Of a stretch of DNA of 64,000 nucleotides, positions 38,433 through 53,654 are shown piece by piece (the first letter of the stretch is position 1; each line of letters begins with the position of its first letter). A program made the translations under genes and the position numbers. The notes beneath the pieces are model-generated. The model worked only from the letters and a program-made list of their open reading frames with translations. It searched no databases and was not told the origin of the DNA. The stretch is from IMG/VR virus record IMGVR_UViG_3300031784_000006, one strand, 5' to 3'. The DNA is from a virus (lineage: Duplodnaviria > Caudoviricetes).

Positions 38433-38462
38433 ACACTATGGGGACAATCTCAGGGGCCCAAT
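38433..38462 (-). repeat. 31-bp cassette/promoter repeat, copy 1
   Basis: acactatggggacaatctcaggggcccaat. Confidence 0.95.
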
Positions 38463-38485
38463 AATACTCACTCAGTCGGTATGAG

Positions 38486-38659
38486 TTACCACTTATCAGG
38501 ACGGCTGAGGTCTTCCACATAAGCTGACACACGCTCAGCTGGTTCCAATTTGAATACTTTATCCCAGTCAAGTTGATGCGGGTCGAAGTCTTCGAAGACC
38601 TCAAGCTCTAGAGTGACCCTATAACGCTGCTTCTGGGCTTGGCGATACGCAACCGACAT
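38486..38659 (-). CDS. 57-aa hypothetical protein
   Basis: Hand-translated MSVAYRQAQKQRYRVTLELEVFEDFDPHQLDWDKVFKLEPAERVSAYVEDLSRPDKW; has its own promoter. Confidence 0.75.
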   Translation of the reverse strand: MSVAYRQAQKQRYRVTLELEVFEDFDPHQLDWDKVFKLEPAERVSAYVEDLSRPDKW

Positions 38660-38688
38660 AAGTGTGCTCCGTGAGTGTTACTGTGGCT

Positions 38689-38717
38689 ACTATAAGATGC
38701 TGGGGGCAATGTGTCAA
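38689..38717 (-). promoter_or_regulatory. Sigma70-type promoter (leftward)
   Basis: TTGACA-17 bp-TATAGT. Confidence 0.8.
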
Positions 38718-38791
38718 GACCTTGGGTGTATTTATGAGGGGTGTTGATATTTTATGAGGGTGATTGTGGGGATTTGGAAACGTCGGGGTGC

Positions 38792-38820
38792 TTGACATTT
38801 TGGAGAGTGTGTGATAGCTT
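38792..38820 (+). promoter_or_regulatory. Sigma70-type promoter (rightward, into non-coding DNA)
   Basis: TTGACA-17 bp-TAGCTT. Confidence 0.6.
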
Positions 38821-38840
38821 GCACGCAAAGATCACAAGAC

Positions 38841-38925
38841 CTAGAAGGATTTAAAAGGCATAAGTTACGGGGTCTAGAAGGATTTAAAAGGGCTTTATTC
38901 CACAGATTCCACAAGCTTTTCCACA
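38841..38925. repeat. Two 18-bp direct repeats and three TTCCACA heptamers
   Basis: ctagaaggatttaaaagg at 38841 and 38874; TTCCACA at 38898, 38907 and 38919. Confidence 0.9.
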
Positions 38926-39012
38926 AGGCTGTTGAAAACTCAGCTATATTTAAAAAAGGCTTTATTAAACGTTTTAATACATTTTTGACACTAAATCACG
39001 TTTTTAGGCATT

Positions 39013-39038
39013 AAAAAAGAGGGGTTAGATCCCCTCTC
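39013..39038 (-). terminator. Intrinsic terminator
   Basis: AGAGGGG-ATCTAA-CCCCTCT followed by a T tract on the minus strand. Confidence 0.85.
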
Positions 39039-39047
39039 TATGTGTAT

Positions 39048-39284
39048 TCAATCAAGTGCTAATCGGTAACGAGCATAATCCTCTGCATCGCTACGTTTGC
39101 GGAATCGTGCTTCTTCACCTTCAAATCGTAGAGGCAAATACCTATACTTCTTGCCTTCCTTCGTCATAACAATTCGGGAGAATAGGTGCAGTGAGTAACT
39201 ACCATCCTCACTTCTTTCCTTCTCTTTCTTTACAATGAAGGGGAGAACTTGTTGATCGTTGAATGATGCTTTGGAGAGTAACAT
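39048..39284 (-). CDS. Hypothetical protein
   Basis: ORF track; followed by the terminator. Confidence 0.75.
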   Translation of the reverse strand: MLLSKASFNDQQVLPFIVKKEKERSEDGSYSLHLFSRIVMTKEGKKYRYLPLRFEGEEARFRKRSDAEDYARYRLALD

Positions 39285-39315
39285 TTTGGAAAAAAGTATA
39301 ATGAACTGGAGTGAA

Positions 39316-39453
39316 TCAGTATGTCATAATGGTTGCAATCGTTCCTGCTCGTGTATAGAAATCAACCATTCTTTCTGCTTCATTGTAGGTACTGAAACCT
39401 TGAAACTTCCATCCTTGAGAGTAAGGACAAAACCAGCGAATCGTTGTTCTCAT
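39316..39453 (-). CDS. 45-aa protein, paralogue of 39450..39584
   Basis: Hand-translated MRTTIRWFCPYSQGWKFQGFSTYNEAERMVDFYTRAGTIATIMTY. Confidence 0.75.
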   Translation of the reverse strand: MRTTIRWFCPYSQGWKFQGFSTYNEAERMVDFYTRAGTIATIMTY

Positions 39454-39584
39454 TGTGTTACTAATTCAGCAGGACTACCACACGATTTATAGAACTCTAT
39501 CATGCGTTGTGCTTCATCAAGTGTAGAGAATGATTGCGTTCTCCATTGTTGTTGATAAGGCGTAAAGTAGCGAATGGTGAACAT
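39450..39584 (-). CDS. 44-aa protein, paralogue of 39316..39453
   Basis: Hand-translated MFTIRYFTPYQQQWRTQSFSTLDEAQRMIEFYKSCGSPAELVTQ. Confidence 0.75.
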   Translation of the reverse strand: MFTIRYFTPYQQQWRTQSFSTLDEAQRMIEFYKSCGSPAELVTQ

Positions 39585-39856
39585 CAGAACTTATCCATCC
39601 ATTGTTGAATCTTTTGCAGTGCAGTTGGCTCATCATTGCACTTACACTTGCGGAACTTGGTTGTATTCAAACCTTTTGAAATCAGTTCCAGTTTGCCATC
39701 AGCAAGACAGAAGATTCCATATCGTGAGTTATGGAAAATGTTGTTAATCCAGGAATCTTGAGTATCAGCACTGACCTTAAAAAAGATCGAAGTGTGATTA
39801 GCAAGAGTGCTATTGTCGATGTGGAGATAAGGGAAAGACATTTGGGAAGTGCTCAT
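39584..39856 (-). CDS. Hypothetical early protein
   Basis: ORF track; first ATG lies inside repeat copy 2. Confidence 0.75.
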   Translation of the reverse strand: MSTSQMSFPYLHIDNSTLANHTSIFFKVSADTQDSWINNIFHNSRYGIFCLADGKLELISKGLNTTKFRKCKCNDEPTALQKIQQWMDKF

Positions 39857-39885
39857 ACTACTAGGACAATCTCAGGGGCCCAGTA
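39855..39885 (-). repeat. 31-bp repeat, copy 2
   Basis: atactactaggacaatctcaggggcccagta. Confidence 0.95.
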
Positions 39886-39894
39886 TTTGTTAGG

Positions 39895-40068
39895 TCAGTC
39901 GTTTGAAGTGTGAAGAATGGAGATCATCTTTTGGTAATAGTTGTCTGCTTCTACCTCACATTGATGAGATTCGTTTGCATCTTCAATCTCATATTGTTTC
40001 ATATTAAGACGATGAATAACGCTTTCTAGAAGATCAGTCAGTGCTTCAATCTTTTGTGCTTCAGTCAT
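39895..40068 (-). CDS. 57-aa hypothetical protein
   Basis: Hand-translated MTEAQKIEALTDLLESVIHRLNMKQYEIEDANESHQCEVEADNYYQKMISILHTSND. Confidence 0.7.
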   Translation of the reverse strand: MTEAQKIEALTDLLESVIHRLNMKQYEIEDANESHQCEVEADNYYQKMISILHTSND

Positions 40069-40385
40069 TAGTTAAGCACCATACCTTCAGTGAAAGGAAC
40101 TGTGTTGCCATTATCAATCACAAACCATTCAAAGTCACGTTGAAAGATACGGGCATCATTTCCGTGAACTTTCAGAATAGCATTGAGACGTGATTTGGTG
40201 GTAACAGTCTTATACCCACAGGTGTAAAGTTCAAGGAAGGTATCACCAATCGTTGCGATATGATTGCCATGAAGCATAACATATGAAGCATCACGTTCGG
40301 GCGAATAAGTTACCTCAGTGTTGTCATTTTTCCAGTCTTTGCAATCACAGATTGCTTTGTTCATTTGGAGTTCAATCTTACGCAT
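40068..40385 (-). CDS. Hypothetical early protein
   Basis: ORF track; VMLHGNHIA and TTKSRLNAIL motifs. Confidence 0.8.
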   Translation of the reverse strand: MRKIELQMNKAICDCKDWKNDNTEVTYSPERDASYVMLHGNHIATIGDTFLELYTCGYKTVTTKSRLNAILKVHGNDARIFQRDFEWFVIDNGNTVPFTEGMVLN

Positions 40386-40404
40386 GGTTGGAAGTTCAGT
40401 GGTT

Positions 40405-40435
40405 ATACTACAGGGACAATCTCAGGGGCCCAGTT
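40405..40435 (-). repeat. 31-bp repeat, copy 3
   Basis: atactacagggacaatctcaggggcccagtt. Confidence 0.95.
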
Positions 40436-40439
40436 TCTA

Positions 40440-40640
40440 TCAGGCAGCGATTGCAGACTCCAGACATACCTCACGGGTTTCGAGAAGTACATAATCGAAC
40501 TCAGATTCTAACTGCTTCAGGTAAGCATCTGCAGCGGAGAAGCAATCAAACAAGCGGAGAGATTTGAAGTCTTCACCTTCATAATCAATGCCACCAATTA
40601 CAGCATAAACTTTAGACATTTGGAAAGCGTTGGTGTTCAT
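40440..40640 (-). CDS. Hypothetical early protein (single-gene cassette)
   Basis: ORF track; bounded by repeats 3 and 4. Confidence 0.75.
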   Translation of the reverse strand: MNTNAFQMSKVYAVIGGIDYEGEDFKSLRLFDCFSAADAYLKQLESEFDYVLLETREVCLESAIAA

Positions 40641-40669
40641 ACTATAGGGACAATCTCAGGGGCCCAGTT
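40639..40669 (-). repeat. 31-bp repeat, copy 4
   Basis: atactatagggacaatctcaggggcccagtt. Confidence 0.95.
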
Positions 40670-40685
40670 TTTATCAACTTTTGAT

Positions 40686-40811
40686 TTATTCTTCAGATAT
40701 ATGACAAAACTCCATCAAATAGTAATCAATACTGATGCCAAGTTCGATTGCTTCGTCTTTGATTTCCTCGTAAATGTTTTCAGGAATTGTATGATATTCA
40801 GTCTCAATCAT
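40686..40811 (-). CDS. 41-aa acidic protein (MIETEYHTIP...)
   Basis: C-terminal part of ORF-track 40686..40937; the upstream part overlaps another ORF. Confidence 0.6.
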   Translation of the reverse strand: MIETEYHTIPENIYEEIKDEAIELGISIDYYLMEFCHISEE

Positions 40812-40953
40812 GGTCAATTTCTCCTCCTTTGATTTCAACATTTTCAAGAATAGTGACGATAGAATTGTTTGGGGTAAGATACTGAACTTGTAAAACATTC
40901 GGTGCAATTTCAGTCGCTCCGATAATGGTTGATGCAATCAGAAGTTCAATCAT
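40804..40953 (-). CDS. 49-aa hypothetical protein
   Basis: Hand-translated MIELLIASTIIGATEIAPNVLQVQYLTPNNSIVTILENVEIKGGEIDHD. Confidence 0.6.
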   Translation of the reverse strand: MIELLIASTIIGATEIAPNVLQVQYLTPNNSIVTILENVEIKGGEIDHD

Positions 40954-41056
40954 TGTGGCGAAATAATGTCTGCTACAGTGTGCAATGCGCTTGCAGTAGT
41001 GTTGCGAACTCCAGGTGATAAAATACTCGCAACGATGAAGATTAACAGAATTGTCT

Positions 41057-41254
41057 TCAATTTACTACGTCGTAGCGAAGTGATTTTATGCACCATCCTG
41101 TATTGTTTGTGATAACATCTGCAAGACAATCCTCACCATCAGGTGAATCCCACAGACAATTCTTTGCATCATTTACAATCTCATCTTTCTCTTCTTCAGT
41201 GAGATCTTCGTAGTCAAAATCAAACTCAATTTCAGTTACTTTGTAGAAGTTCAT
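41057..41254 (-). CDS. Acidic hypothetical early protein
   Basis: ORF track; downstream of repeat 5. Confidence 0.75.
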   Translation of the reverse strand: MNFYKVTEIEFDFDYEDLTEEEKDEIVNDAKNCLWDSPDGEDCLADVITNNTGWCIKSLRYDVVN

Positions 41255-41272
41255 TGTGGTTTCTCAGTGCTT

Positions 41273-41303
41273 ATACTACTAGGACAATCTCAGGGGCCCA
41301 GTT
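41273..41303 (-). repeat. 31-bp repeat, copy 5
   Basis: atactactaggacaatctcaggggcccagtt. Confidence 0.95.
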
Positions 41304-41307
41304 TCTA

Positions 41308-41898
41308 TCAGAACAGATTGCGACCAAAAGATCCACACAAATAAAACGCCATTCCCTTATCCTTAAGCGTCACACCTGCAAATGTCAGAGGTACATAGCG
41401 GCCGTTGGTTTTAGATGCTTTCGTGCGAATCTGCAGCAATCCGTTAGGTCCAGTGATGGTTCCTAGTTGTTTACCAGCATCGAAAAGTGTGCGAATGCTG
41501 TTACAAATGAACTCATAATCCTCACGCAATTCTTGATAGTGCTCCGCATGAGTTTCCTCATTCAGAATAGCGGAACCCATATAATCGTTCTCACGAGTGA
41601 ATCCAACATACAGAGTTTGCTTTAGTTTCTGCCCGACTTTGCTATCATCAAACGAGACAGAATCTTCGATGATTTCAGATAGACAATGCTTCAACTGTGT
41701 GGCAGCAATCGACTCTCCAACTGTGAAAGTCTTAATTTCCCCATCTTCCAGATCTTGCAGGTCAGAAGAGTTAGGAACTCCCAGTGCAATTTCTAACAGT
41801 TGCCCACGAGCACCTTTGTTCTTTCCTGGTTTATCAAATGCACTGAAGTCAGTAACATTCAGTTTCGCAAATACTTCGTTCGTTGTCAGTTTTGGCAT
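41308..41898 (-). CDS. MutH/Sau3AI-family PD-(D/E)XK endonuclease
   Basis: NKGARGQLLEIALG, D..DGEIKT catalytic segment, LLQIRTKAS and AFYL parallel MutH (KGWIG.LLE..LG, ELKT, LQIRPKA, GFYL). Confidence 0.75.
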   Translation of the reverse strand: MPKLTTNEVFAKLNVTDFSAFDKPGKNKGARGQLLEIALGVPNSSDLQDLEDGEIKTFTVGESIAATQLKHCLSEIIEDSVSFDDSKVGQKLKQTLYVGFTRENDYMGSAILNEETHAEHYQELREDYEFICNSIRTLFDAGKQLGTITGPNGLLQIRTKASKTNGRYVPLTFAGVTLKDKGMAFYLCGSFGRNLF

Positions 41899-41913
41899 CG
41901 TGGTTGTGCTCTT

Positions 41914-41944
41914 ATACTACAAGGACAATCTCAGGGGCCCAGTT
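41914..41944 (-). repeat. 31-bp repeat, copy 6
   Basis: atactacaaggacaatctcaggggcccagtt. Confidence 0.95.
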
Positions 41945-41945
41945 T

Positions 41946-42185
41946 CTATTGCCCAACAAGATCGTTTGCAACTTCATCATCATAGATTTCGCGGATTTCT
42001 TCAATCAACTCATCTACAGTTTCAAACTGTTTCGTGAGGTTATCAATGAGAGTATCAAGTGCAAACTGTTCGAGAGATTTGTAATCCATACCATCCAAAA
42101 TCATCTGAGCATAGTTCTCAACAACAGTGCTAAAATCAGGAGTCATTTCAGTCATTTTGTTTGTGGGATTAGGAAGGGAAATCAT
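41946..42185 (-). CDS. Acidic hypothetical protein
   Basis: ORF track; stop abuts repeat 6. Confidence 0.7.
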   Translation of the reverse strand: MISLPNPTNKMTEMTPDFSTVVENYAQMILDGMDYKSLEQFALDTLIDNLTKQFETVDELIEEIREIYDDEVANDLVGQ

Positions 42186-42409
42186 TGAATAACAGTGTTC
42201 ACATCAGGATTGAAAGTAACCTCATGGAGCACATCAAAATCATCACTCATCTTGACATAATTCCAGAGAGTGTCAGTCTCATCATCCACATTTTCCTGAT
42301 AAAGGTGAATGAAACCGTCATCATCTTGTTTTACATAACAACCATCATAATTTTCATCATCAAATACATAACCAGATGCAATCAGTGCGTCAGTAAAAGT
42401 CATAATCAA
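42182..42409 (-). CDS. Acidic hypothetical protein
   Basis: ORF track; coupled to neighbours. Confidence 0.7.
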   Translation of the reverse strand: MIMTFTDALIASGYVFDDENYDGCYVKQDDDGFIHLYQENVDDETDTLWNYVKMSDDFDVLHEVTFNPDVNTVIQ

Positions 42410-42579
42410 TCAACAACAGAGTAACAGGCAACCCAGGAAGGAATACCCGAAAGTGCTAAAGAACCGTTGCGGTCGTCGCAATACTCTTGGGCATCATCTT
42501 CACTGTAGAAAGGTCCAACATACTCAGGAGAATTGAGTGCATTGGAATCGAATCGAACTGTGAAAGTGGTTTGTGTCAT
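42406..42579 (-). CDS. 57-aa hypothetical protein
   Basis: Hand-translated MTQTTFTVRFDSNALNSPEYVGPFYSEDDAQEYCDDRNGSLALSGIPSWVACYSVVD; the only ATG is inside repeat 7. Confidence 0.7.
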   Translation of the reverse strand: MTQTTFTVRFDSNALNSPEYVGPFYSEDDAQEYCDDRNGSLALSGIPSWVACYSVVD

Positions 42580-42608
42580 ACTACAGGGACAATCTCAGGG
42601 GCCCAGTT
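42578..42608 (-). repeat. 31-bp repeat, copy 7
   Basis: atactacagggacaatctcaggggcccagtt. Confidence 0.95.
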
Positions 42609-42782
42609 TCAATAACCGTTCAGAAAGTCAGCAAGTGCTTCCTGATACTCAGCTTCAGTCTCAAAGGTACGATAACCAATCGTGCAAGGAAAGGTACGCT
42701 TTGAAGCAGAAGCTTTAGGCAGGTCACGACACTTATCGAGAACCTGTTGCTTGTAAGGATTGGCGTTGTAGTTAGTGTTCAT
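42609..42782 (-). CDS. 57-aa hypothetical protein (single-gene cassette)
   Basis: Hand-translated MNTNYNANPYKQQVLDKCRDLPKASASKRTFPCTIGYRTFETEAEYQEALADFLNGY; spans exactly from repeat 8 to repeat 7. Confidence 0.7.
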   Translation of the reverse strand: MNTNYNANPYKQQVLDKCRDLPKASASKRTFPCTIGYRTFETEAEYQEALADFLNGY

Positions 42783-42811
42783 ACTATAGGGACAATCTCA
42801 AGGGCCCAATT
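42781..42811 (-). repeat. 31-bp repeat, copy 8
   Basis: atactatagggacaatctcaagggcccaatt. Confidence 0.95.
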
Positions 42812-42953
42812 ACTTAAACGTTGCATTGACACCAATCACCTTTGCTGTAGGATTTCGTGCTGTTGCTGTTTCGCGGGCATCTTTTGGGGAGTTAGCATAC
42901 ACTTCCTCTTTGAAGACTTTACCACCAACGTAGAGTTGAACTTCGTATTTCAT
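42810..42953 (-). CDS. 47-aa hypothetical protein
   Basis: Hand-translated MKYEVQLYVGGKVFKEEVYANSPKDARETATARNPTAKVIGVNATFK; stop overlaps repeat 8. Confidence 0.75.
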   Translation of the reverse strand: MKYEVQLYVGGKVFKEEVYANSPKDARETATARNPTAKVIGVNATFK

Positions 42954-43144
42954 AGTGTTTGAAACTCCTGTGCTTCTTTGATGTTAGAATTGAAAAACTT
43001 TTGGAAGATGGAATCAATCACAGGATACCATTCTTCGTTACCACTTGGGTATCCACATTCTCGTGCTTGATTGAGAAACTTTAAGATGCAAGTTTCCTCA
43101 TTAGCAGTGAACTCAACGCGATTGAAAGTGTAACCGTCAGTCAT
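42950..43144 (-). CDS. Hypothetical protein
   Basis: ORF track. Confidence 0.7.
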   Translation of the reverse strand: MTDGYTFNRVEFTANEETCILKFLNQARECGYPSGNEEWYPVIDSIFQKFFNSNIKEAQEFQTL

Positions 43145-43146
43145 AA

Positions 43147-43422
43147 TCAGTTCACCGATTCTTGGTAGATTGACATACCCTTACGCATAGAAATGTAGTC
43201 ATCAATCATCTCACCAATCTGTTCATAAACGTAGGAAGAACCTCCTACATCACAGAGCACATCTTCAGTGAGTTGTTTAGAGAAACGCACTTCCTTATCA
43301 TTAGCATCAAACTCAAAGACATCCTCTTGAGTGTATATAAACGCAGCACAACCTGCGTCTTCACCTTGTTGCTCAATCAGTTGGTTGATTGAATCACGGA
43401 GTTGGGAAAGTGTGCGGAACAT
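43147..43422 (-). CDS. Hypothetical protein (MFRTLSQLRDSIN...)
   Basis: ORF track 43147..43461; start moved to ATG 43422. Confidence 0.7.
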   Translation of the reverse strand: MFRTLSQLRDSINQLIEQQGEDAGCAAFIYTQEDVFEFDANDKEVRFSKQLTEDVLCDVGGSSYVYEQIGEMIDDYISMRKGMSIYQESVN

Positions 43423-43424
43423 AA

Positions 43425-43589
43425 TCAGGAATAAACAGGAATAGAGGTGATTTCTTTCCACTCTCGTGGGAAGATTTCGTTGGCAATTTTTTCGTTCAGT
43501 TTGACACAGTTGAGAGGTTTGATGTTACTTTTGCGTTGGAACTTCTCAACAGTTCCATCTCTAAACTCAACGCGAATGTTGTAAAGCAT
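43425..43589 (-). CDS. Hypothetical protein (MLYNIRVEF...)
   Basis: ORF track 43425..43625; internal start avoids overlap. Confidence 0.65.
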   Translation of the reverse strand: MLYNIRVEFRDGTVEKFQRKSNIKPLNCVKLNEKIANEIFPREWKEITSIPVYS

Positions 43590-43591
43590 AA

Positions 43592-43831
43592 TCAAGCAGG
43601 AAGGATACAGAAAGTGCCACACCAACCGCGAACCCAGTTTAGAGTTTCATGGTAAGATGTGCGAGGATTGCTCATCTCCATCTTGGAACCGTTGCTAGGA
43701 TTGTATGCAACAGCGACATAGAGATTGTCGCACTCTTTATCAGTGATTTGCTCAATCCACATTTGATTGACTTTACCTTCCTTCCAATTTGTGTGGTAGG
43801 AGTAGACTTCGGAAACGATGGTGTTGCTCAT
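43592..43831 (-). CDS. Hypothetical protein
   Basis: ORF track; ATG inside repeat 9. Confidence 0.7.
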   Translation of the reverse strand: MSNTIVSEVYSYHTNWKEGKVNQMWIEQITDKECDNLYVAVAYNPSNGSKMEMSNPRTSYHETLNWVRGWCGTFCILPA

Positions 43832-43860
43832 ACTATAGGGACAATCTCAAGGGCCCAGTT
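43830..43860 (-). repeat. 31-bp repeat, copy 9
   Basis: atactatagggacaatctcaagggcccagtt. Confidence 0.95.
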
Positions 43861-43864
43861 TCAA

Positions 43865-44119
43865 TCACCAGCGGCCTTGTTGAATGAGAATCTTTTTTAT
43901 CTCAGTATAAATGAACTGACGAAGTTTAGCGTCTGTGGTGTTATCAAGAGCATAATACAGTCGATTCAGATACTCATTCTGCGTAAGACCTATGTTACCA
44001 TCACCACCAATCTCATTGAGTGATGAACCTGCTTTAGCTTTGGGGCGTCCAAAGTTACCTGTGACGTTGCCAGATGTCCTCAGTTTGGGACGAATCTTTG
44101 AGAGGTTAGAGTAAGTCAT
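43865..44119 (-). CDS. Hypothetical protein
   Basis: ORF track. Confidence 0.75.
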   Translation of the reverse strand: MTYSNLSKIRPKLRTSGNVTGNFGRPKAKAGSSLNEIGGDGNIGLTQNEYLNRLYYALDNTTDAKLRQFIYTEIKKILIQQGRW

Positions 44120-44325
44120 TCATCTTCCTCATAAGGGAACATTTCGTCATACTCTTCGTCTGTGAGAGTAAGATACTGAACGTTAGCATTTTTGTGCTCT
44201 TCAGCATACACCAACTGATAATGTGCGAAAGAAGAAGGGTCAGAACTAGCAAACTCTAGCAGACCATCAACAAAACAAAGGTAATTCATGTTACTCATTT
44301 TGCGTACAGATAACCACCAGACCAA
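44116..44325 (-). CDS. Acidic hypothetical protein (true start probably MSNMNY)
   Basis: ORF track. Confidence 0.65.
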   Translation of the reverse strand: MVWWLSVRKMSNMNYLCFVDGLLEFASSDPSSFAHYQLVYAEEHKNANVQYLTLTDEEYDEMFPYEEDE

Positions 44326-44726
44326 TCAGCATTTTCCAGCAGATATTCACGATCCTTTATCAATCGCAAATCATAACGAACACCTTTCGCAGGAGATTTC
44401 CAGGAGGCAGACTTATACATTTCACCAGTGTTCTTATCAATGAAGCAATGAACAGAGCGAGACATACCACTGGTAATCATAATCACTTTATGATACTTTT
44501 TACCAGTTTCAATCTCATACTCAATAGGACAAAATCCACTCTTGAGTTCATCAATACAGCGCAGATGATACTCTACACTTTCACCACGCTCCGCAGAACG
44601 CTGATGCCCACGAATAGCGTACTGACGATAATTGTCTTTCAGTGCTTCAATCAGCAGCAGAGTATTCTTAAGGACGCTTTCTGCGATAGTTTGTTGTGCT
44701 TGTGCTTGCATCGTAGGAGTGCTCAT
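44295..44726 (-). CDS. Conserved phage hypothetical protein
   Basis: GKKYHKVI, SVHCFIDKNTGEMYKSASWKSPAKGVRY motif. Confidence 0.8.
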   Translation of the reverse strand: MSTPTMQAQAQQTIAESVLKNTLLLIEALKDNYRQYAIRGHQRSAERGESVEYHLRCIDELKSGFCPIEYEIETGKKYHKVIMITSGMSRSVHCFIDKNTGEMYKSASWKSPAKGVRYDLRLIKDREYLLENADWSGGYLYAK

Positions 44727-44755
44727 ACTATAGGGACAATCTCAAGGGCCCAGTT
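44725..44755 (-). repeat. 31-bp repeat, copy 10
   Basis: atactatagggacaatctcaagggcccagtt. Confidence 0.95.
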
Positions 44756-45671
44756 ACCAACTCTTTGCAAGAGTGAAGTTCAACCTGCTAAACTCTTCAC
44801 GATTCACAATCTTGTAAGACCCAAACTTGTTGTGCATTACGAATCCTTCGTGATCGCTGAGTTCACCATCAATCTCACAAGTAATGTCAGTGTCAGACTC
44901 AATGAAGCAGAACAAATCCATCTTGATAGACTCAACCAACTTCCAAAGCCGCATCAGGTTGATGTCAACATCATAATTTTCTGCAATTTCATGCTCATCC
45001 ACCTCCTTACCCTCACGAACGTAGGAATTGATGATTTTTTTGAGTTCTGCTGCTTGCTTTACATTCACGAACTCACAAAGTGTGCTCATTTGCTTGGCAA
45101 ACTTGCAGAAGTCTTCAATATCATCACGGAAGGGACAAATAGACACACTAGGTTGCACAAACAAGCATTTTTTAGTGCTTGCAAACTTACCCACGATAGG
45201 ATGAGCTACCATCTCAGGCAGACGCTCACCAGTGTAATATGTGTGAGGGGCAATGATAATCTCCTGACGAACAATCTCAGGGAAGCGATAGGTAATTGTA
45301 TTGGGTTTGAATGTATCCAATCCACTACCAAAACCAATCCAATCCCCCTGATACACGTTCTTAGTGCGAGGAAGAAAATCCAGGCAGAAGATAAGAATTT
45401 GCGTTACGCGAGGTTGACCACCAAAGTGCGTAAAGATGTCGTCTTCGGTATAGCAAAGGCGAATCTTTTTCTTGTTAAATGCTGCTTTGGTGCAGACAAA
45501 GAACTTACCATTCTCAGGATTAGTGCCCCAAACAATAGCAGGAGCACCATCCATCTTGGTGCTGATGGTAGAATCTACCTCAGAAAACCAGTCAAGAACA
45601 GATAGATTACCCGTTAGGATTTCGTCTTCAGGATGCTCTAGGTGCTTGTTTTGCATTGGTTGCTTACTCAT
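44754..45671 (-). CDS. Ligase/capping-fold nucleotidyltransferase-like protein (DUF6267-like)
   Basis: KHLEHPED, TKMDGAPAIVWG (KxDG motif I), HEGFVM (motif IV-like), YKIVNRE (motif V-like). ORF-track start 45698 lies within repeat 11. Confidence 0.65.
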   Translation of the reverse strand: MSKQPMQNKHLEHPEDEILTGNLSVLDWFSEVDSTISTKMDGAPAIVWGTNPENGKFFVCTKAAFNKKKIRLCYTEDDIFTHFGGQPRVTQILIFCLDFLPRTKNVYQGDWIGFGSGLDTFKPNTITYRFPEIVRQEIIIAPHTYYTGERLPEMVAHPIVGKFASTKKCLFVQPSVSICPFRDDIEDFCKFAKQMSTLCEFVNVKQAAELKKIINSYVREGKEVDEHEIAENYDVDINLMRLWKLVESIKMDLFCFIESDTDITCEIDGELSDHEGFVMHNKFGSYKIVNREEFSRLNFTLAKSW

Positions 45672-45700
45672 ACTACTAGGACAATCCCAAGGGCCCAATT
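45670..45700 (-). repeat. 31-bp repeat, copy 11
   Basis: atactactaggacaatcccaagggcccaatt. Confidence 0.95.
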
Positions 45701-47324: not shown

Positions 47325-47348
47325 GGCCACTTGAGTCTTGAGTGAGAC

Positions 47349-48596
47349 TCACCGCCTCACCACCGACACGGCAGGTTCACCTTTTTCAAAGATGGTATCA
47401 ACAACCGACTGCACAGCTTTGGCAGTGCTGATACCAACCTTGCTGTAGACAGGAATACACACAAGACCAAAGCTCTTGGTGTATTGCGACAGGTTGCCAG
47501 GTTGGATGCTACCATCACGGAGACCTTTTGCATCGTCATGATGTAGACGGATGCAGCGACCAATAGTTTGGCTGATACCGATAAAGTCCATGTTGCGAAG
47601 GAACAGAACTGCCTCAAGTCCAGAGACATTGATGCCTTCAGCTAGGATGCTATGGTGCAGAACAACAAACTTCTTATCGTTATCCTTACCCCATGCGCTC
47701 AGAGTGTCAAAGAACACCTCACGATTGACCTTCTTGCCGTCAATAACTGCGCCAGTCTTAGCAGTAATATACATCCAGGAATAACCGCGACACTCCAACT
47801 GGAAGCAGAAATCAGTTTCAGTCACCAGAGACACGATTTGCTTGGTTGCCTTAGCACAAATCAGAATCTTACCAACCTTGTTCTCATCAATCGTTTCCAG
47901 CAGATTCTCCGAATCGCGGTCGAAGTTGGTCTGCTTGCCAGTCACCATAGCCAGTTGCTTGACAATAACTTTGGGAGGCACAATGTAACCACCTTCAACC
48001 AACTCAGGAGCAGGAACTTTGCAGATTACCTGACCATAAACAGCAGCATCATTCATGCCAGGTTTGCCAACTGCCAGAGAATGTTTGGGAGTTGCAGTGA
48101 AGAAGTAGCAACGACGTGCATTAGCAGCAAAGTGCTCAGTTGCAGGAAAGAAGTGACGCTGAACAGAATTATGTGCCTCATCAAAGTAGATCGTATCCAC
48201 ATCAATTCCTGCCACTTGAAGACGCGACAGAGAGTTGTAGGTAGTGAAGATCAGTTGGTGACGATTAGCAGCAGCACACATACCAGCATGAACAAGAATG
48301 TCAGCAGGTTTGGTAGTGCTAACGTGATGAGTCTCGCCACTGTGAACGTGAAGAACTTCAGCGTTGGTGATAAACTCCAGAAACTCAGCAGAGAGTTGCT
48401 CAGCAAGCAAGATGCGGGGAGCAACAACAACAATGGTCTGGGGAGTTTCAGACTGCAACTCACGCAGACAATCGTAAATCATTTTGAGAGTCTTACCACC
48501 GCCAGTAGGAACAATGATTTGCCCTTTGTCGTGCTTCTGCATAGCAGCAACACCACGTTCTTGATGAGGGCGAAGATTGATCAGATGAGGAATCAT
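47349..48596 (-). CDS. SF2 DEAH-box helicase (type III restriction Res-subunit-like)
   Basis: LRPHQ, VPTGGGKT, YFDEAHN, FTATP, ILAEGINV, QTIGRCIR. Confidence 0.9.
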   Translation of the reverse strand: MIPHLINLRPHQERGVAAMQKHDKGQIIVPTGGGKTLKMIYDCLRELQSETPQTIVVVAPRILLAEQLSAEFLEFITNAEVLHVHSGETHHVSTTKPADILVHAGMCAAANRHQLIFTTYNSLSRLQVAGIDVDTIYFDEAHNSVQRHFFPATEHFAANARRCYFFTATPKHSLAVGKPGMNDAAVYGQVICKVPAPELVEGGYIVPPKVIVKQLAMVTGKQTNFDRDSENLLETIDENKVGKILICAKATKQIVSLVTETDFCFQLECRGYSWMYITAKTGAVIDGKKVNREVFFDTLSAWGKDNDKKFVVLHHSILAEGINVSGLEAVLFLRNMDFIGISQTIGRCIRLHHDDAKGLRDGSIQPGNLSQYTKSFGLVCIPVYSKVGISTAKAVQSVVDTIFEKGEPAVSVVRR

Positions 48597-48637
48597 TACG
48601 AATTACAGAGTTTCGGGTGGTTTGGTATCTAAAAAGC

Positions 48638-48673
48638 ATTATAGCACCCTTCCTGACGCTTGTGAAGGGTGCT
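48638..48673 (-). promoter_or_regulatory. Sigma70-type promoter within an inverted repeat
   Basis: TTCACA-17 bp-TATAAT with extended TG; stem AGCACCCTTC...GAAGGGTGCT. Confidence 0.75.
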
Positions 48674-48685
48674 GATGGCAGTTAA

Positions 48686-48841
48686 TCAACCACCAAACAT
48701 TTCATCAAACAACCAATCACCAGAACGTTCTTTTTCTTCCCAGACTTTGTTAGCGTTTGCTTCAATCATTGCCCGTTCGATTTGAATATCGAGGGTAGAT
48801 TTGGTGCTGAACCAGTTACCGTTGCGGTCTTGCCAGAGCAT
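48686..48841 (-). CDS. 51-aa hypothetical protein
   Basis: Hand-translated MLWQDRNGNWFSTKSTLDIQIERAMIEANANKVWEEKERSGDWLFDEMFGG. Confidence 0.7.
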   Translation of the reverse strand: MLWQDRNGNWFSTKSTLDIQIERAMIEANANKVWEEKERSGDWLFDEMFGG

Positions 48842-48864
48842 AGTGTCGTTTGAGTGTTGTCCTT

Positions 48865-48895
48865 ATATTACAAGGACAATCTCAGGGGCCCGATT
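48865..48895 (-). repeat. 31-bp repeat, copy 12
   Basis: atattacaaggacaatctcaggggcccgatt. Confidence 0.92.
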
Positions 48896-49521
48896 CAAGT
48901 ATCAGGACCAGTGTACTTGTGCTTCAATTCACTTTCCTTCTTCTTACCTGTCGCTTTGAGAACCAAATCGCGCAGTTTTTGCTTACCTGCTCTTACCATT
49001 TGTTTCTTTTCTGCTTTGGTATATTTGCCTTTAATCATGTGCTCTTCAGGTTTTCTTGAGCTTGAGAATCTAGAATCTTTGGGTGCTGCCGATGATTTAG
49101 GTGCTGCTTTCTTTCTCAGCAGTTCAGTTGCTTTTGCTTTTAATTCTTTCTCTTTTGGTTTTGCTGCTTCTGGTTTTGCTCCTGCCTTTTTCGCAGCAAT
49201 TCTTGCCTGTGCAGCTTTTCTTCTCTCTTCCTTTGCAGCTGCTAGTTGTGCTTCTCTTGCGGACCCACGTTCTTGCTTTGGTGCTTCAATCGTAGACTCA
49301 CGCTTCTTGCCAATATCTTTGCGTGGTTTCTGAACTACAGGTGCAGTCTTTCCACCACCAACTCTCTTTGTTCTACGAATCTCAGGAGTTGTCTTTCTGC
49401 GAAGTCTTCCAGTTCTTCCACCTTCTCCAGTCTTAATGACTTGAGCACCAGAGCGAAACTCTGCATCATAGGTGTCACCAGTTGCTTCGCAAATAGACAT
49501 AAACTCCTGAAAGGTTTTCAT
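48895..49521 (-). CDS. Lys/Ala/Arg-rich putative capsid internal protein
   Basis: N-terminus MKTFQEFMSICEA resembles the T4 IP capsid-targeting sequence; late-promoter-like CTAAATA at 49546-49552. Confidence 0.65.
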   Translation of the reverse strand: MKTFQEFMSICEATGDTYDAEFRSGAQVIKTGEGGRTGRLRRKTTPEIRRTKRVGGGKTAPVVQKPRKDIGKKRESTIEAPKQERGSAREAQLAAAKEERRKAAQARIAAKKAGAKPEAAKPKEKELKAKATELLRKKAAPKSSAAPKDSRFSSSRKPEEHMIKGKYTKAEKKQMVRAGKQKLRDLVLKATGKKKESELKHKYTGPDT

Positions 49522-49548
49522 TGCTATCTAAACACTACTTTTTAGTAT

Positions 49549-49749
49549 TTAGAACTCCACTTCCTTTGCTTTATATGAACCTTTGAATACACGTCCTTCT
49601 GCATAGAATTGCTTCACACGTTCGCGGCGAGTAGCAAGAAGCAAATCATATTCTTCTTGTTGTTGCTTAGTGAACGTGAAATCTTGCCGCCTCCAAGTAT
49701 CTTTCAGTTCTTGGATGTGGGGAAGCACGTTAGGGATGTGTTCAGTCAT
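49549..49749 (-). CDS. Hypothetical protein
   Basis: ORF track; upstream AAACTGTCCACC motif at 49791-49802. Confidence 0.75.
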   Translation of the reverse strand: MTEHIPNVLPHIQELKDTWRRQDFTFTKQQQEEYDLLLATRRERVKQFYAEGRVFKGSYKAKEVEF

Positions 49750-49809
49750 TTGAGTATAATAAAGAATGAAGGGTCAGTATGGGATATTTGGTGGACAGTT
49801 TAAAATCTG

Positions 49810-49944
49810 TCAGTAGTCAATGTTAGAGTTAAGATACTCATTCATATTAAAGTTGTTTTTCTCTTCAATCAATTCGGAGAGATCCTCTTCAATAAAATCA
49901 AAATTTTCAAGTTCCTCAATTTGATTGTCGTCGAACCAGTCCAT
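49810..49944 (-). CDS. 44-aa very acidic protein
   Basis: Hand-translated MDWFDDNQIEELENFDFIEEDLSELIEEKNNFNMNEYLNSNIDY; downstream of repeat 13. Confidence 0.7.
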   Translation of the reverse strand: MDWFDDNQIEELENFDFIEEDLSELIEEKNNFNMNEYLNSNIDY

Positions 49945-49959
49945 AATGCTTGGGTGATT

Positions 49960-49990
49960 ACACTATAGAGACAATCCCAGGGGCCCAATT
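49960..49990 (-). repeat. 31-bp repeat, copy 13
   Basis: acactatagagacaatcccaggggcccaatt. Confidence 0.92.
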
Positions 49991-49994
49991 AAAA

Positions 49995-50375
49995 TCAAAG
50001 AGGAGATAGCATCGTACTTCCAACCATTCTCTTCACAAATCTATCAGTATTACTCTGATGTTTCGGTTTTGGTGCTGTTGGCTTCATTGGAGAAGGACCA
50101 GCTGGAGTTGCTGCAGATTTAAGGTTTTTCTGATGAACAGGATCACTCAACTTAAACACACTATTAGGACTGATTGGATCACCAACAGCCTCTCTTATCT
50201 TTTTTAAAGGCATATTCATGCGTTCTTTATATGAACCCTTATCTATAGTCTTAAATCCAGGATTGAACCTTGGTTGACGATTATCAGGAACACCAGGATC
50301 TTTTCCAAGCGAATAAAATGCCTGGACAAGAGATGGTTTTTGCGTTTGTTCTATAAACTGTTTAAAGGTTTTCAT
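49995..50375 (-). CDS. Putative capsid internal protein
   Basis: N-terminus MKTFKQFIEQ. Confidence 0.6.
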   Translation of the reverse strand: MKTFKQFIEQTQKPSLVQAFYSLGKDPGVPDNRQPRFNPGFKTIDKGSYKERMNMPLKKIREAVGDPISPNSVFKLSDPVHQKNLKSAATPAGPSPMKPTAPKPKHQSNTDRFVKRMVGSTMLSPL

Positions 50376-50382
50376 AGATTAC

Positions 50383-50817
50383 TCATTTTTTAGGGAATGT
50401 TCCAGGAATATCTTTAAATGTTTTTATTTTGTAGTAAGGGTCTTGGTCCTGCTTCTTTCTATACGTATTAAATTCTTTTTCTCTTTGTTGAGCAAGTTCT
50501 CTCCTTCTCAATCCAACTGGACTCGTTCCTTGTGCCATAGCATCTGTTACTCTTGAACGATATGCTCTTCTATCATCCAATCTATCTCTAACAACATCTG
50601 ATGGTGTAGATCCAACCACAGATCTTGGCGACTCAACAATACTATCTCTCCACTCTTCACTCATATTTGCCATAATAGCAATTGCTGCTTCATTTGTGTC
50701 AGCATATCCTTCTGCAACCAGATATTCAAGAATGTGGTCAAACAAATCATTATTTTCTTCAACTTGATGAACTTGGTTATATGCTTCTTGAAGATTTCGA
50801 AGTTCTTGGGAGTCCAT
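50383..50817 (-). CDS. Late hypothetical protein (MDSQELRNLQEAY type)
   Basis: ORF track; FDHILEYLVAEGYADTNEAAIAIMANMSEEW module; CTAAATA at 50839-50845. Confidence 0.7.
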   Translation of the reverse strand: MDSQELRNLQEAYNQVHQVEENNDLFDHILEYLVAEGYADTNEAAIAIMANMSEEWRDSIVESPRSVVGSTPSDVVRDRLDDRRAYRSRVTDAMAQGTSPVGLRRRELAQQREKEFNTYRKKQDQDPYYKIKTFKDIPGTFPKK

Positions 50818-50847
50818 TGTTACAAATACTTTTTTAGGTATTTAGTA

Positions 50848-51144
50848 TTATTCAAACTCAAGTGGTTTGTTAAGTGGTCTGGGGGGTGGTGTTTGGTAAT
50901 CAGGCAACATAGAACCATCAATCACAACCTGCACTGTTGTTTTATCATTCCAATGCCTCACAGCATTTGCTACAATAAAGCAGTTAGTAATAAAAATAGA
51001 CAGAAACATCACAAGGCGAATAAGTGCTACCTTATCCGCCTCCTTATCACATTTACTTGCCTTTTCTCCTAGTGATTTAGCTAGCAACCGCCAAAAGGTT
51101 TTGCTCTTCTTCATAGATTGATGTGCGCGATTGAATGTATTCAA
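50848..51144 (-). CDS. Small membrane protein
   Basis: WRLLAKSLGEK and a hydrophobic segment; likely start MKKSKT. Confidence 0.7.
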   Translation of the reverse strand: MNTFNRAHQSMKKSKTFWRLLAKSLGEKASKCDKEADKVALIRLVMFLSIFITNCFIVANAVRHWNDKTTVQVVIDGSMLPDYQTPPPRPLNKPLEFE

Positions 51145-51346
51145 GTTGTTCCCACTGGTTATTATAACAAATCACAAGTAATCTTTCATTTCTGTGAATA
51201 GGGCAGCATACAAGATTGACTTCATCTTTTGGACGAACACTGCGCTCAATCGTGATATATTCATCACACTTGAAGTACACCCAACCTTCTACATCTTTTC
51301 CATTATTCCACACAACATAATCATTGACTTGTGGTTCATAGGTCAT
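51077..51346 (-). CDS. Hypothetical protein
   Basis: ORF track. Confidence 0.7.
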   Translation of the reverse strand: MTYEPQVNDYVVWNNGKDVEGWVYFKCDEYITIERSVRPKDEVNLVCCPIHRNERLLVICYNNQWEQLEYIQSRTSIYEEEQNLLAVAS

Positions 51347-51663
51347 ACAAAGAACGCATCTAGTGGAGATTGTTTAATTGGCATCGCGGTATAGTTTCGC
51401 GTTTCCTTGATATTTACACAAGCACCGATGGTTTTACTATTGATGGGGGCGAAGTATTCTCTGGTCTTGGTGTTGTAGAAGGAGTGAATAGTCCTAGTTG
51501 GAACACCGCCATTATAGACAAACTTGTAAGTGTTGCATAACCAAATACTAACCACATTTCGCTTGAAGTCTTCACACTCATAATAGTATCCGTTTGGTGG
51601 AGAATGAAAGAAAGATGTTGGAAGTTCAACAATCATAGAACTTGTCTCGCGACATATACTCAA
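51343..51663 (-). CDS. Hypothetical protein
   Basis: ORF track; FFHSPPNGYYY motif. Confidence 0.7.
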   Translation of the reverse strand: MSICRETSSMIVELPTSFFHSPPNGYYYECEDFKRNVVSIWLCNTYKFVYNGGVPTRTIHSFYNTKTREYFAPINSKTIGACVNIKETRNYTAMPIKQSPLDAFFV

Positions 51664-51792
51664 TTTGCTTCTGCAGTTGTGAGATTTCGTGTTCTTGTTC
51701 TACAATTTTATTTTGCAGTTGTTCAATACGTTCTTGATACTGTGTCTTCAAATCAAACACCATTTTATTAGTGTGAGCAACGTGGTGAGTCA

Positions 51793-52032
51793 TCAGGTTG
51801 TAAATGCCTCCACCATTCGAGATTGTTCATTTTCTACGAGAGCGAATCGTGGTGCCTTAATCACATTCTCGCGCAGTTTACTATAATGTTCTGTCCAACA
51901 TTCGTTATCCCATTCTACAACAATATCAAAACATTCATCGTCATTTTCTGCAATAACATTAAGCAAACCACCGTACTCCGATTGCCAAACTGGTACGAAG
52001 TAGTCAAGAATGTAAAGAAACTTTTGTGCCAT
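51793..52032 (-). CDS. Hypothetical protein
   Basis: ORF track; YFVPVWQSEYGG. Confidence 0.75.
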   Translation of the reverse strand: MAQKFLYILDYFVPVWQSEYGGLLNVIAENDDECFDIVVEWDNECWTEHYSKLRENVIKAPRFALVENEQSRMVEAFTT

Positions 52033-52582
52033 TTGTTTGTGTAAATTACCTCTTAAGTTTAGGATTAGTTGTCGTCGTTGTCAACATCTGCAGCGACAAT
52101 AAGTGAAGTTCCAATAGTCAAAAGGATACCAAGTCCCATACCAAGAATAAAAGTCATCAATAAAACTCCGCGAGATAGTAGTCAACGGTTACCTCAAGTT
52201 TTGCTGCTTCAATCTCAACTTCTTTCCAGAACTCTTCTGCTACTTTGTCCATTTCTGCTTGTTTAATAAGGTCGCGGAGTCGTTTAGGAATCATTTGGAT
52301 TTCTCCTTAAGTTGTGCTTCTTCAGTAGGATACATTACCTTATAGTAATATATCATAATCGACGATACAAATGCAACCAGTGCTGCATAGATTGCTATAC
52401 CAAGTCCAATACTCATTCTACGTTACAATCTGGATGCCATCCTGCTTGTTGCTTACAATATTCTTGCTTAGCAGTCTCTTTATAGTATGCTTTGAATAGT
52501 TTTTCATCACGCTGGATTAGAAAGACATTCCAACCAAGAATGACTGCAAAACCAATCAATCCAGCGACGACGTACTTGCGGT

Positions 52583-53002
52583 TCATTTTTTAACAGCAGG
52601 TGCTTGTTGAATGTCAAAAGTAGGAACAGGAGCGCCACCATTACTGGGAACCATATAAACAGTTCGACTGGTGTTCTCTTCACCTTGAGTAATCCAAAGA
52701 TACTGAAGATAAGCAGGATTACCTTTCAAACTATCCCCAATAATGGAGTTTGCTTTTGCGACACCTTGAGCACGGATAATTTCAGCATCAGCGAGTTGTT
52801 GTGCCGAATCTTTCTTTGCTTGTGCTTCCAGAACTGCTACCTGTCGGGTATATTCTGCCTTTTGTAGTTCTGCTTTACCAGCAAGAGATTGTTGCCACAC
52901 ATTATATTGGGGACCACCAATAAAGATGAGACCACCAACTAAGAACACACCAGCAATAAAAAGAACAGCAGGAGGGTCAATAAATCCGCTTTGTTTGTTC
53001 AT
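52583..53002 (-). CDS. Membrane-anchored phage protein with Ala-rich coiled coil
   Basis: N-terminal transmembrane helix; AEIIRAQGVAKANSIIGDSLKGNPAYLQYLWI. Confidence 0.75.
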   Translation of the reverse strand: MNKQSGFIDPPAVLFIAGVFLVGGLIFIGGPQYNVWQQSLAGKAELQKAEYTRQVAVLEAQAKKDSAQQLADAEIIRAQGVAKANSIIGDSLKGNPAYLQYLWITQGEENTSRTVYMVPSNGGAPVPTFDIQQAPAVKK

Positions 53003-53190
53003 TTAGAAGAAACTCCAGTATTTTTAAAAATCAAATTAGCAAGAGCAATGATAGCAAAGTTCTGCCAGAAGGTCAAAGATACATTGAACCAAGACAGAAT
53101 GAGTCCAAGCAACCACGCTTCAAAGAGAAGTCCAGCAGTAGCAAGGACAATAACAACAAAGGCAGCAGCAAGAGTAGTAGAAGTTTTCAT
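52999..53190 (-). CDS. Small membrane protein
   Basis: Two hydrophobic segments. Confidence 0.7.
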   Translation of the reverse strand: MKTSTTLAAAFVVIVLATAGLLFEAWLLGLILSWFNVSLTFWQNFAIIALANLIFKNTGVSSK

Positions 53191-53193
53191 AGG

Positions 53194-53607
53194 TCAAACG
53201 TGAAGAGCAGCAGAGGGGATTTCAACAACTTCAGGGAGTTTCTCTTCAAAGGCGTTCATACTATAGCACACCCACTCACCATTTGTGAAGAGATAGTGAT
53301 ACTCTTCTGCACCATCAGGCAGCAAATACTCACACAGGTCAGCATCAAGACGAGGGGGAGAATCTTCACCGCGATAGGAATAATAGTTGGGACCATAAGA
53401 ACCCTTCACACCACTATCATTCCAACGCTCATCAGTCCAAGCACAAGACATATCACCACCGTCAATCAGTTCGGCAGCAAGTTGTCTGGTATTGTAGTGA
53501 GTCTTGAGAATACGACCCAACCAGGACTCATAACCGTCCCAGTGGTGATACACAGAGAGGATAGAACCATTCTTAAGTTCAATACCGATTCGTGCTCGGG
53601 TGCTCAT
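53194..53607 (-). CDS. Conserved phage hypothetical protein
   Basis: STRARIGI, SVYHHWDGY, EEYHYLF; downstream of repeat 14. Confidence 0.8.
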   Translation of the reverse strand: MSTRARIGIELKNGSILSVYHHWDGYESWLGRILKTHYNTRQLAAELIDGGDMSCAWTDERWNDSGVKGSYGPNYYSYRGEDSPPRLDADLCEYLLPDGAEEYHYLFTNGEWVCYSMNAFEEKLPEVVEIPSAALHV

Positions 53608-53623
53608 TTGAGAGTTGTTGCTT

Positions 53624-53654
53624 ACATTACTAGGACACTCTCAGGGGCCCAATA
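53624..53654 (-). repeat. 31-bp repeat, copy 14
   Basis: acattactaggacactctcaggggcccaata. Confidence 0.92.

Follow-up and report, generated by a model that had tools for sequence, protein, structure and literature searches.

How T4-like cyanophages time the expression of their earliest genes is poorly understood. Doron et al. in 2016 reportedly described a novel regulatory element that controls early-gene transcription in the phages Syn9 and P-TIM40; host-like promoters are said to drive the middle genes, and the elements to be abundant among T4-like cyanophages and conserved in genomes as well as in metagenomes. Promoter-early stem-loops (PeSLs) are known from RB49/phi1, PST/T4 and nt-1/KVP40, and homologous exchange between copies has been proposed for them (PMC2839356, PMC4122927). 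In this work we analyzed a stretch of 64,000 nucleotides from the IMG/VR virus record IMGVR_UViG_3300031784_000006 (hereafter the window), whose source is an uncultured lake T4-like cyanomyovirus, and a 31-nt element that is repeated in it. We propose, with modest confidence, that each copy is a phage-specific promoter of a block of early and accessory genes, served by the host RNA polymerase.

A search with the 31-nt pattern, allowing up to three mismatches, revealed 14 matches in the window, all on the minus strand, and 100 shuffles gave none. This bears out an earlier note on the same DNA, made from its letters alone, which had listed 14 same-orientation copies (Table 1) and had given their spacing correctly as 203–3664 bp. 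A scan of the 64 kb with a position weight matrix, proposed in that note, found no extra copies, and neither did a search with a 17-nt core. The palindrome GGGCCC, which had been described as conserved, occurs exactly 14 times in the window, every time inside a copy. All 14 copies are strictly intergenic and lie directly 5' of open reading frames (ORFs). The upstream stop codon, as had been claimed, abuts or overlaps the 5' end of the element (offsets −9 to +2, that is, 0–9 nt before it or over its first two bases), and the next start follows within 0–23 nt: an ATG occupies motif positions 30–32 in seven copies and lies 15–23 nt past the motif in the other seven. Of the two boxes noted earlier, TAnnnT is present in 14 of 14 copies, but YTGGGC is not universal (13 of 14), copy 48865 having TCGGGC.

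The predicted RNA folds of typical copies were not more stable than those of shuffled sequences (z +0.2 to +2.0). It should be mentioned that copy 48865 alone (48840–48905, minus strand) has a strong hairpin, UUGUCCUUG...AAGGACAA, around the −10-like box (−17.9 kcal/mol, z −3.8); copy 38433 carries a 6-bp version of it, and in a few relatives both arms have changed in matching fashion (TGTTTC with GAAACA). A hairpin between core and downstream part was rejected as a general feature: a stem of at least 5 bp was found in 53 of 225 instances, compared with 57 ± 4 after the downstream parts had been swapped.

Outside the window, the exact core was found in 12 IMG/VR stretches and a looser freshwater pattern in more than 113, which is a lower bound. 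The freshwater pattern had no match across 185,579 prokaryote genomes, one per species; the element is restricted to phages. Within each of 116 loci all copies lie on one strand, the core never occurring on the opposite strand, and long contigs contain clusters of 12–15 copies over 15–19 kb. A partial BLAST match of the motif in the cultured phage SynMITS9220M01, and then S-SM2, revealed marine carriers with 10 and 9 copies, respectively, all forward (reversed control, 0). In both phages the copies are found only in a 14–15-kb part of a syntenic block that contains a uvsW-type helicase gene and ends at gp25. A marine-type pattern of the core, in which CCCTATAGT is fixed and the CT closing the 5' halves of the marine phages is included, matched 119 IMG/VR stretches; these contain 302 unique instances.

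The exact 18-nt core was not found in Syn9, S-PM2 and S-CRM01. At the T4-GC66 junction, the orthologous positions in the window, S-SM2 and SynMITS9220M01 bear the motif, and the motif-free S-PM2 has a canonical TTGTAC-17-TATTAA promoter upstream of this gene, a site that has been noted as a host-like early promoter (PMC4503421). Near the DUF7717 gene, the junction in Syn9 carries a repeat that is a Syn9 version, of which there are only four copies. Junctions of the Syn9 early region (L243, 46304–51292) contain a longer composite consisting of a AGGTGGCACA box, a GC-rich hairpin or TTGCCCCC, and then TAYTCTATAAGAG; S-PM2 (L013) has GAACTGGCACA, a hairpin and TATACT. The Syn9 and S-PM2 boxes are similar to the freshwater AACTGGGCCC half.

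Comparison of copies from different phages revealed that the element consists of two parts that are conserved in different ways. The 18-nt 3' core at positions 14–31, AAAGTGTCC-N3-TARTRT (A-R-A-K-TGTCC-N3-TA-R-T-R-T), is universal, being common to the freshwater and marine phages, and is directly followed by a conserved R-A-G-C-A-C. In 356 instances gathered without any constraint on the box, T26, A27, T29 and T31 were conserved at 97%, 96%, 99% and 94%; positions 28, 30 and 32 were purines, and A33 (89%) and A36 (78%) were also prevalent. The conservation of positions 26–31 thus follows the TAnnnT rule for −10 elements. The 13-nt 5' half, on the contrary, is uniform inside a genome and unrelated across lineages: it reads A-Y-TGGGCCC-Y-TG in the window, AGGGGGGTCGCCT in S-SM2 and GTTACTCACCTCT in SynMITS9220M01, and at least 15 discrete types were present in the marine-type IMG/VR set. 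Among 713 instances the difference per site of this half was 14% within a locus and 50% between loci, and on average 87% of the copies were within two mismatches of the modal type of their own locus. Several 5' types have a 6-bp palindrome (GGGCCC, GGATCC or GCCGGC) at one shared place. The 5' half is not likely to be the site of a host factor because it is unrelated in two marine Synechococcus phages; it may be read by a co-evolving phage factor or, alternatively, be kept uniform by gene conversion alone.

The stop codon of the unrelated upstream genes peaks 7 to 5 nt before motif position 1, where 162 of 225 instances have the T and 159 the A; it is often a TGA with a further stop behind it in a different frame, as in TGATAGA and TGATTGA. 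Judging from these sequences, the unit that is repeated apparently reaches a few bases beyond the 5' end of the motif and carries stops with it.

The element also contains a start codon, which we studied in 528 unique instances. About 47% of the copies have ATG at positions 30–32, where the element overlaps the start codon in a fixed register. Of 248 such ATGs, 239 (96%) open a frame that runs for 35 codons or more, versus 41% where ATA or GTA stands in this place, and therefore the start codon is part of the element. Only 4 of 17 copies with GTG at this position are followed by an open frame. Grouped by peptide, the ATG class gives 57 clusters, of which 48 have long open frames. A second in-frame ATG is present in 55% of this class at positions 42–54 (mode 45), which coincides with the start location of the non-ATG class, where the first ATG of a long ORF lies at positions 45–55, in any frame (mode 47–49).

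For many genes the embedded codon has no substitute. Of the 248 ATG-class copies, 65 lack any further in-frame ATG over the next 30 codons (e.g., ORFs w43 and w44 and family x48), and w38, x7 and the DUF6267 gene of both marine phages are further ORFs lacking a nearby alternative start. The homologue of w38 in the relative L003 has a separate native ATG 20 nt further on, which is missing in w38; in the homologue of w37 in L004 the native ATG has turned into ATA. Similarly, an ATG of the window is replaced by ATT or CTG in the DUF6267 genes of both marine phages, and the element-borne ATG is their sole one. As these reading frames indicate, ribosomes initiate at the embedded AUG, which means that RNA containing position 30 must exist. 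The element can also flag start codons that gene callers may miss.

Building on the anatomy, distribution, two-part conservation and phage restriction of the element, and on translation from its embedded ATG, we infer that it has promoter activity, where its transcripts start and that a dedicated factor exists, as follows. The TA-R-T-R-T box (positions 26–31) would act as a −10 element. In place of a −35 hexamer, of which no usable one is apparent, the AAAGTGTCC-type core would serve together with the genome-specific 5' box (A-Y-TGGGCCC in the window). The latter would probably be recognised by a co-evolving phage-encoded factor, possibly delivered with the virion, following the logic of the MotA-dependent middle promoters of T4. 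The predicted start site is close to the conserved C-A (positions 35–36 to 38), and the mRNA would have a short leader that is rich in A and C and devoid of a Shine-Dalgarno sequence. Transcripts from upstream would in addition read through every copy, because the copies are co-directional and few terminators lie between them; such read-through would explain the translated, in-frame ATG at positions 30–32. Homologous exchange would homogenise the copies and occasionally swap cassettes, as a side effect and not as the function of the element.

A dedicated, possibly phage-factor-dependent promoter class had already been suggested in the earlier note, and this suggestion fits the intergenic placement, the orientation, the invariant TA-R-T-R-T box, the start codons 14–24 nt downstream, the absence from prokaryotes, the genome-specific 5' half and the sigma70 promoter at the S-PM2 junction. 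The clustering of non-ATG-class starts at positions 45–55 is as expected of a short leader behind a promoter. A phage-only signal with a shared downstream half and a genome-private upstream half is, moreover, the pattern expected if a phage specificity factor exists. The single RNA run with a small share of the stretch (X20) yielded four short contigs, which are possibly DNA and cannot show 5' ends, and no RNA samples containing the 3.5-kb query were listed.

Several points weigh against this promoter. With TAGTAT as the −10 element, transcription would begin 3' of the embedded ATG. Genes with this sole ATG would then depend entirely on read-through transcripts for their translation, an awkward arrangement at old, conserved junctions. 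The uniformity of the 5' half could be explained by gene conversion alone. Finally, no candidate factor was found, the AbrB/MazE-like match of ORF w11 being below the Pfam cut-off and without a marine homologue. This ORF (54143–54688, minus strand) was rejected as the factor: its AbrB/MazE-like C-terminus gave E = 1.8e-4, and it had no match in five cultured cyanophages. A canonical TTGACA-18-TAAAAT site is located directly upstream of w11 (54753–54782), whose product is speculative as a DNA-binding candidate. We also rejected a sigma54 promoter (TGGCAC-N5-TTGC), because its spacing is 1–2 nt off by inspection and cyanobacteria are not known to possess rpoN.

Two other explanations place the embedded AUG at the center. 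Transcription may start inside the core, at G28 to A30, to give an mRNA that is leaderless or has a 2-nt leader and begins with the embedded AUG as its first codon. Although this appears unlikely to us, it would account directly for the long frames opened by ATG at positions 30–32, the sole start for many families, and the disuse of GTG there is expected for leaderless initiation; T29-R30 forms an invariant pyrimidine-purine step. The core TCCCTATAG, which is similar to the −8 to +1 part of T7-/SP6-type promoters, can be counted on the same side, and these promoters likewise consist of a specificity half and an initiation half. However, there is no TAnnnT 6–7 nt 5' of position 30, and in half of the copies the ATG is 15–25 nt further on. 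Recognition would have to be of a non-sigma70 type, by a phage-modified polymerase or by a phage polymerase or sigma factor. Searches of S-SM2 and SynMITS9220M01 revealed neither a PF00940 single-subunit polymerase nor a sigma70 region-4 protein, although the control genomes gave no PF00940 match either and absence of such a polymerase is not proven by this search. Such enzymes are not known from T4-like phages. A combined form, in which the universal core would place the polymerase for a start at the built-in AUG or 2 nt before it and the fast-evolving 13-nt box would be read by a co-evolving, perhaps injected, phage protein, is in our opinion quite unlikely. Such a private two-part code, if true, would make early transcription lineage-specific and could insulate co-infecting relatives from each other. 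The element may also work at the RNA level, as an intercistronic site for a RegA-like translational regulator or for an endoribonuclease that trims the mRNA beside the start codon, which we hold to be very unlikely. T4 RegA is a protein that binds the initiation regions of early mRNAs. At least the read-through transcripts must contain the element, since its embedded AUG is translated; the element overlaps the start codon in a fixed register in nearly half of the copies, and the upstream stop peaks at a fixed distance, 4 nt ahead of position 1. RegA is, besides, among the most conserved proteins of the T4-superfamily cyanophages (PMC5349666), but the 5' half is genome-specific despite this conservation. 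Also at odds with a site in RNA are the distance to AUG, which in the non-ATG class can be anything from 15 to 25 nt, the lack of a conserved RNA fold, with a hairpin tendency no higher than in the swapped control, and the canonical promoter at the one orthologous junction in S-PM2.

The earlier note had further taken the repeat for a site of recombination through which cassettes are gained, lost or rearranged, that is, for an integron-like accessory system with no recognisable integrase. That recombination, whether integron-like or by PeSL-type mini-circles, is the primary role of the element we consider highly improbable. A gene-level map against a 69-kb relative (L003 + L005) shows that genes of the array were inserted, deleted or replaced in about 14 events, and two of the replacements have the motif on either flank. 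Nevertheless, in the comparison of breakpoints with relatives, which the note had proposed, only about 7 of 26 fell at the motif, which equals its 28–30% share of junctions and gives no enrichment. The diversity of neighbours was likewise similar at motif and motif-free junctions (Simpson index 0.62 vs 0.56, p = 0.62, and 0.65 vs 0.61, p = 0.80; 116 loci, 2302 ORFs, with power limited by just 6–10 motif-type families). The cassette at 42812–43829 in the window is absent from L004 and L011, where the overlap between two alignments is precisely one motif copy, whereas precise single-gene indels also occur without the motif, such as that of the Dam gene (45880–46704), missing in L008. Among the population joints listed, most of them from short contigs, there was no clean motif-to-motif deletion. 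The copies do evolve in concert: paralogous copies of the same locus differ by 3.95 per 31 sites, orthologous copies of other loci by 4.91 and unrelated copies by 6.38; similarity within the window is higher between neighbouring copies than between randomly paired ones (p = 0.01), and in the 82.6-kb contig G002 copies of the same subtype stand side by side. From these comparisons, occasional homologous exchange between copies is plausible as a by-product. A role in recombination alone would leave the universal 3' core with its −10-like invariants unexplained. Scans with Pfam or PHROGs, which covered the larger ORFs of the window but not all small ones, revealed no integrase or recombinase, and the integron-like system is not supported.

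It should be mentioned that ORF family x6 (150–220 aa, without a Pfam match) occupies varied positions in L003 (3232 region), L009, L005, L002 and L012. In L003 and L009 it is located between w35 and w36, beside a motif copy of the foreign subtype TTCAAAGTG, as if the gene and its motif had arrived as a single unit.

The array has the same location in the window as in the marine relatives, namely the variable block that directly precedes gp25 and gp6. Every gene of the window is on the minus strand, and the repeats are co-oriented with the genes. The array encodes, among others, a UvsW-type helicase, a Dam methylase, DUF6267 and DUF7717 proteins and a Kyano_Gp96 protein. DUF7717 was considered as a motif-specific gene and rejected, since it was found in all five genomes tested, motif-free ones included. 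Two canonical sigma70-like sites are also located in the array (Table 1), and their presence together with the motif suggests, on sequence grounds, two promoter classes within one array.

Table 1. Copies of the 31-nt element and neighbouring features in the window
Feature	Position	Strand	Remarks
Array of 14 motif copies, ~46 small ORFs (w14–w58)	38433..53654	-	Variable block directly upstream of gp25 and gp6
Copy 1, TAATGT box	53624..53654	-	ATG of w14 (T4-GC66 family) 16 nt downstream
Copy 2, TAGTGT box	49960..49990	-	Heads w26
Copy 3, TCGGGC variant, TAATAT box	48865..48895	-	Heads w29; only copy with a strong copy-specific hairpin
Copy 4	45670..45700	-	ATG at 30–32 in frame with w34 (DUF6267); second in-frame ATG at position 45
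Copy 5	44725..44755	-	ATG at 30–32 in frame with w35 (DUF7717)
Copy 6	43830..43860	-	ATG at 30–32 is the sole start near the w38 N-terminus; next in-frame ATG at codon 24
Copy 7	42781..42811	-	ATG at 30–32 is the sole start of w43 (57 aa)
Copy 8	42578..42608	-	ATG at 30–32 is the sole start of w44 (57 aa)
Copy 9	41914..41944	-	Heads w47; ATG 15 nt downstream
Copy 10	41273..41303	-	Heads w48
Copy 11	40639..40669	-	ATG at 30–32 in frame with w50
Copy 12	40405..40435	-	Heads w51 (Kyano_Gp96 family)
Copy 13	39855..39885	-	ATG at 30–32 in frame with w53
Copy 14, TAGTGT box	38433..38463	-	Heads w59
Canonical sigma70-like site, TTCACA-17-TATAAT with TG	48638..48666	-	Directly 5' of the UvsW-type helicase gene
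Canonical sigma70-like site, TTGACA-17-TATAGT	38689..38717	-	5' of w58
gp25	34764-35165	-	Gene downstream of the array
gp6	32857-34764	-	Gene downstream of the array

DNA of the window was recovered in lake and freshwater metagenomes, and its closest cultured relatives are Synechococcus myoviruses, with an identity of just 70–79% over short pieces. The window encodes T4-type baseplate and neck proteins (gp6-, gp7-, gp8-, gp13/14-, gp15- and gp25-like). Its G+C content is about 30% at 18000–36000, in the region of the baseplate genes and a giant protein, versus 41–43% at 38000–54000, in the repeat array. The giant ORF of 4122 aa (20487–32855, minus strand) adjoins the baseplate genes and has a YHYH domain (residues 1236–1328) and a weak baseplate-wedge match. 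Near its end the array is interrupted: a terminator-like hairpin with a T-run at 39018–39050, 3' of w56, is followed by an ORF-poor stretch of about 300 bp and then by the canonical promoter of w58. The DUF6267 protein (T4-GC71; 44754–45671, minus strand) has an N-terminal K-M-D-G that resembles nucleotidyltransferase motif I (KxDG) of ligases. Variable cassettes of the relatives L002, L004, L005 and L010 encode an N6/N4 DNA methylase, a Mom-like protein and a GIY-YIG/NUMOD3 homing endonuclease; other cassette genes of these relatives encode a protein with a weak, sub-threshold ArdA-like match and a helicase-like protein of 755 aa. By its gene content, the variable block looks like a toolbox for anti-restriction and DNA modification. 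In metagenomic cyanophage contigs, the element can serve as a practical marker for this early/anti-defence gene block.

The array can be compared with PeSLs, with which it shares the layout of repeated, co-oriented, putative early-promoter cassettes and a lineage-specific consensus. PeSLs are concentrated in hyperplastic regions near indels and replacements; the region of the array is hyperplastic as well and some events in it are motif-bounded, but breakpoints are not enriched at the motif relative to other junctions. In contrast to PeSLs, the cyanophage element has no stem-loop, its upstream ORFs ending 0–9 nt before the motif and no fold exceeding that of shuffles, and it fills the entire gap from stop to start. 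It also has no Shine-Dalgarno sequence: the leaders are A/C-rich without GGAG, and the ATG is inside the box or 15–25 nt downstream. At the −35 position (17 nt upstream) the window has YTGGGC, with at best three of six matches, and the marine lineages are unrelated there. The array also differs from integrons. Folding inverted repeats of the attC type are lacking, the only dyad of the motif being the 6-nt GGGCCC, and each unit has its own promoter-like element, which is the opposite of promoterless cassettes with one common promoter.

Compared with promoters of the host sigma70 factor (SigA), the element has no cross-lineage −35 consensus, and its pattern is absent from the 185,579 prokaryote genomes. 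It is similar to the MotA middle promoters of T4 in combining a sigma70-type −10 with a phage-specific box that replaces the −35, which implies a phage activator; however, the box is unrelated in sequence to the MotA box TGCTTtA and varies between related phages. Cyanophages have been reported to be without motA and asiA (PMC5780444), genes that were not searched for in the genomes studied here. With T7/T3/SP6-type promoters the element shares a long, fully conserved, two-part layout. The core TCCCTATAG is similar to the single-subunit-polymerase promoter sequence CTCACTATAG. The carriers, however, are T4-like myoviruses, and no PF00940 candidate was present in S-SM2 or SynMITS9220M01, in a search of unproven sensitivity. 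Short repeated intergenic elements are also found in the halovirus HF2, where nine of the repeats have been tested for promoter activity with a reporter gene (PMC8707807), but this is an archaeal virus with archaeal promoter logic, and its repeats are unrelated in sequence.

The closest counterpart is the early-gene element of Syn9 and P-TIM40. The motif strings of the present element were not found in print in the literature searched. Like that element, it is a non-host-like element of early genes, and in the array, too, canonical sigma70-like sites coexist with it. The Syn9 repeat (GTGT...CTATAAG) at the syntenic junction looks related, a likeness of position and, in part, of sequence only. 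On the other hand, the exact 18-nt core is absent from Syn9. Since the same element is present in the cultured pairs S-SM2/WH8017 and SynMITS9220M01/MIT S9220, its start site, timing and factor are open to bench work. Based on this comparison, the element is probably a lineage-specific variant of the class of cyanophage early-gene elements reportedly described by Doron et al. in 2016.

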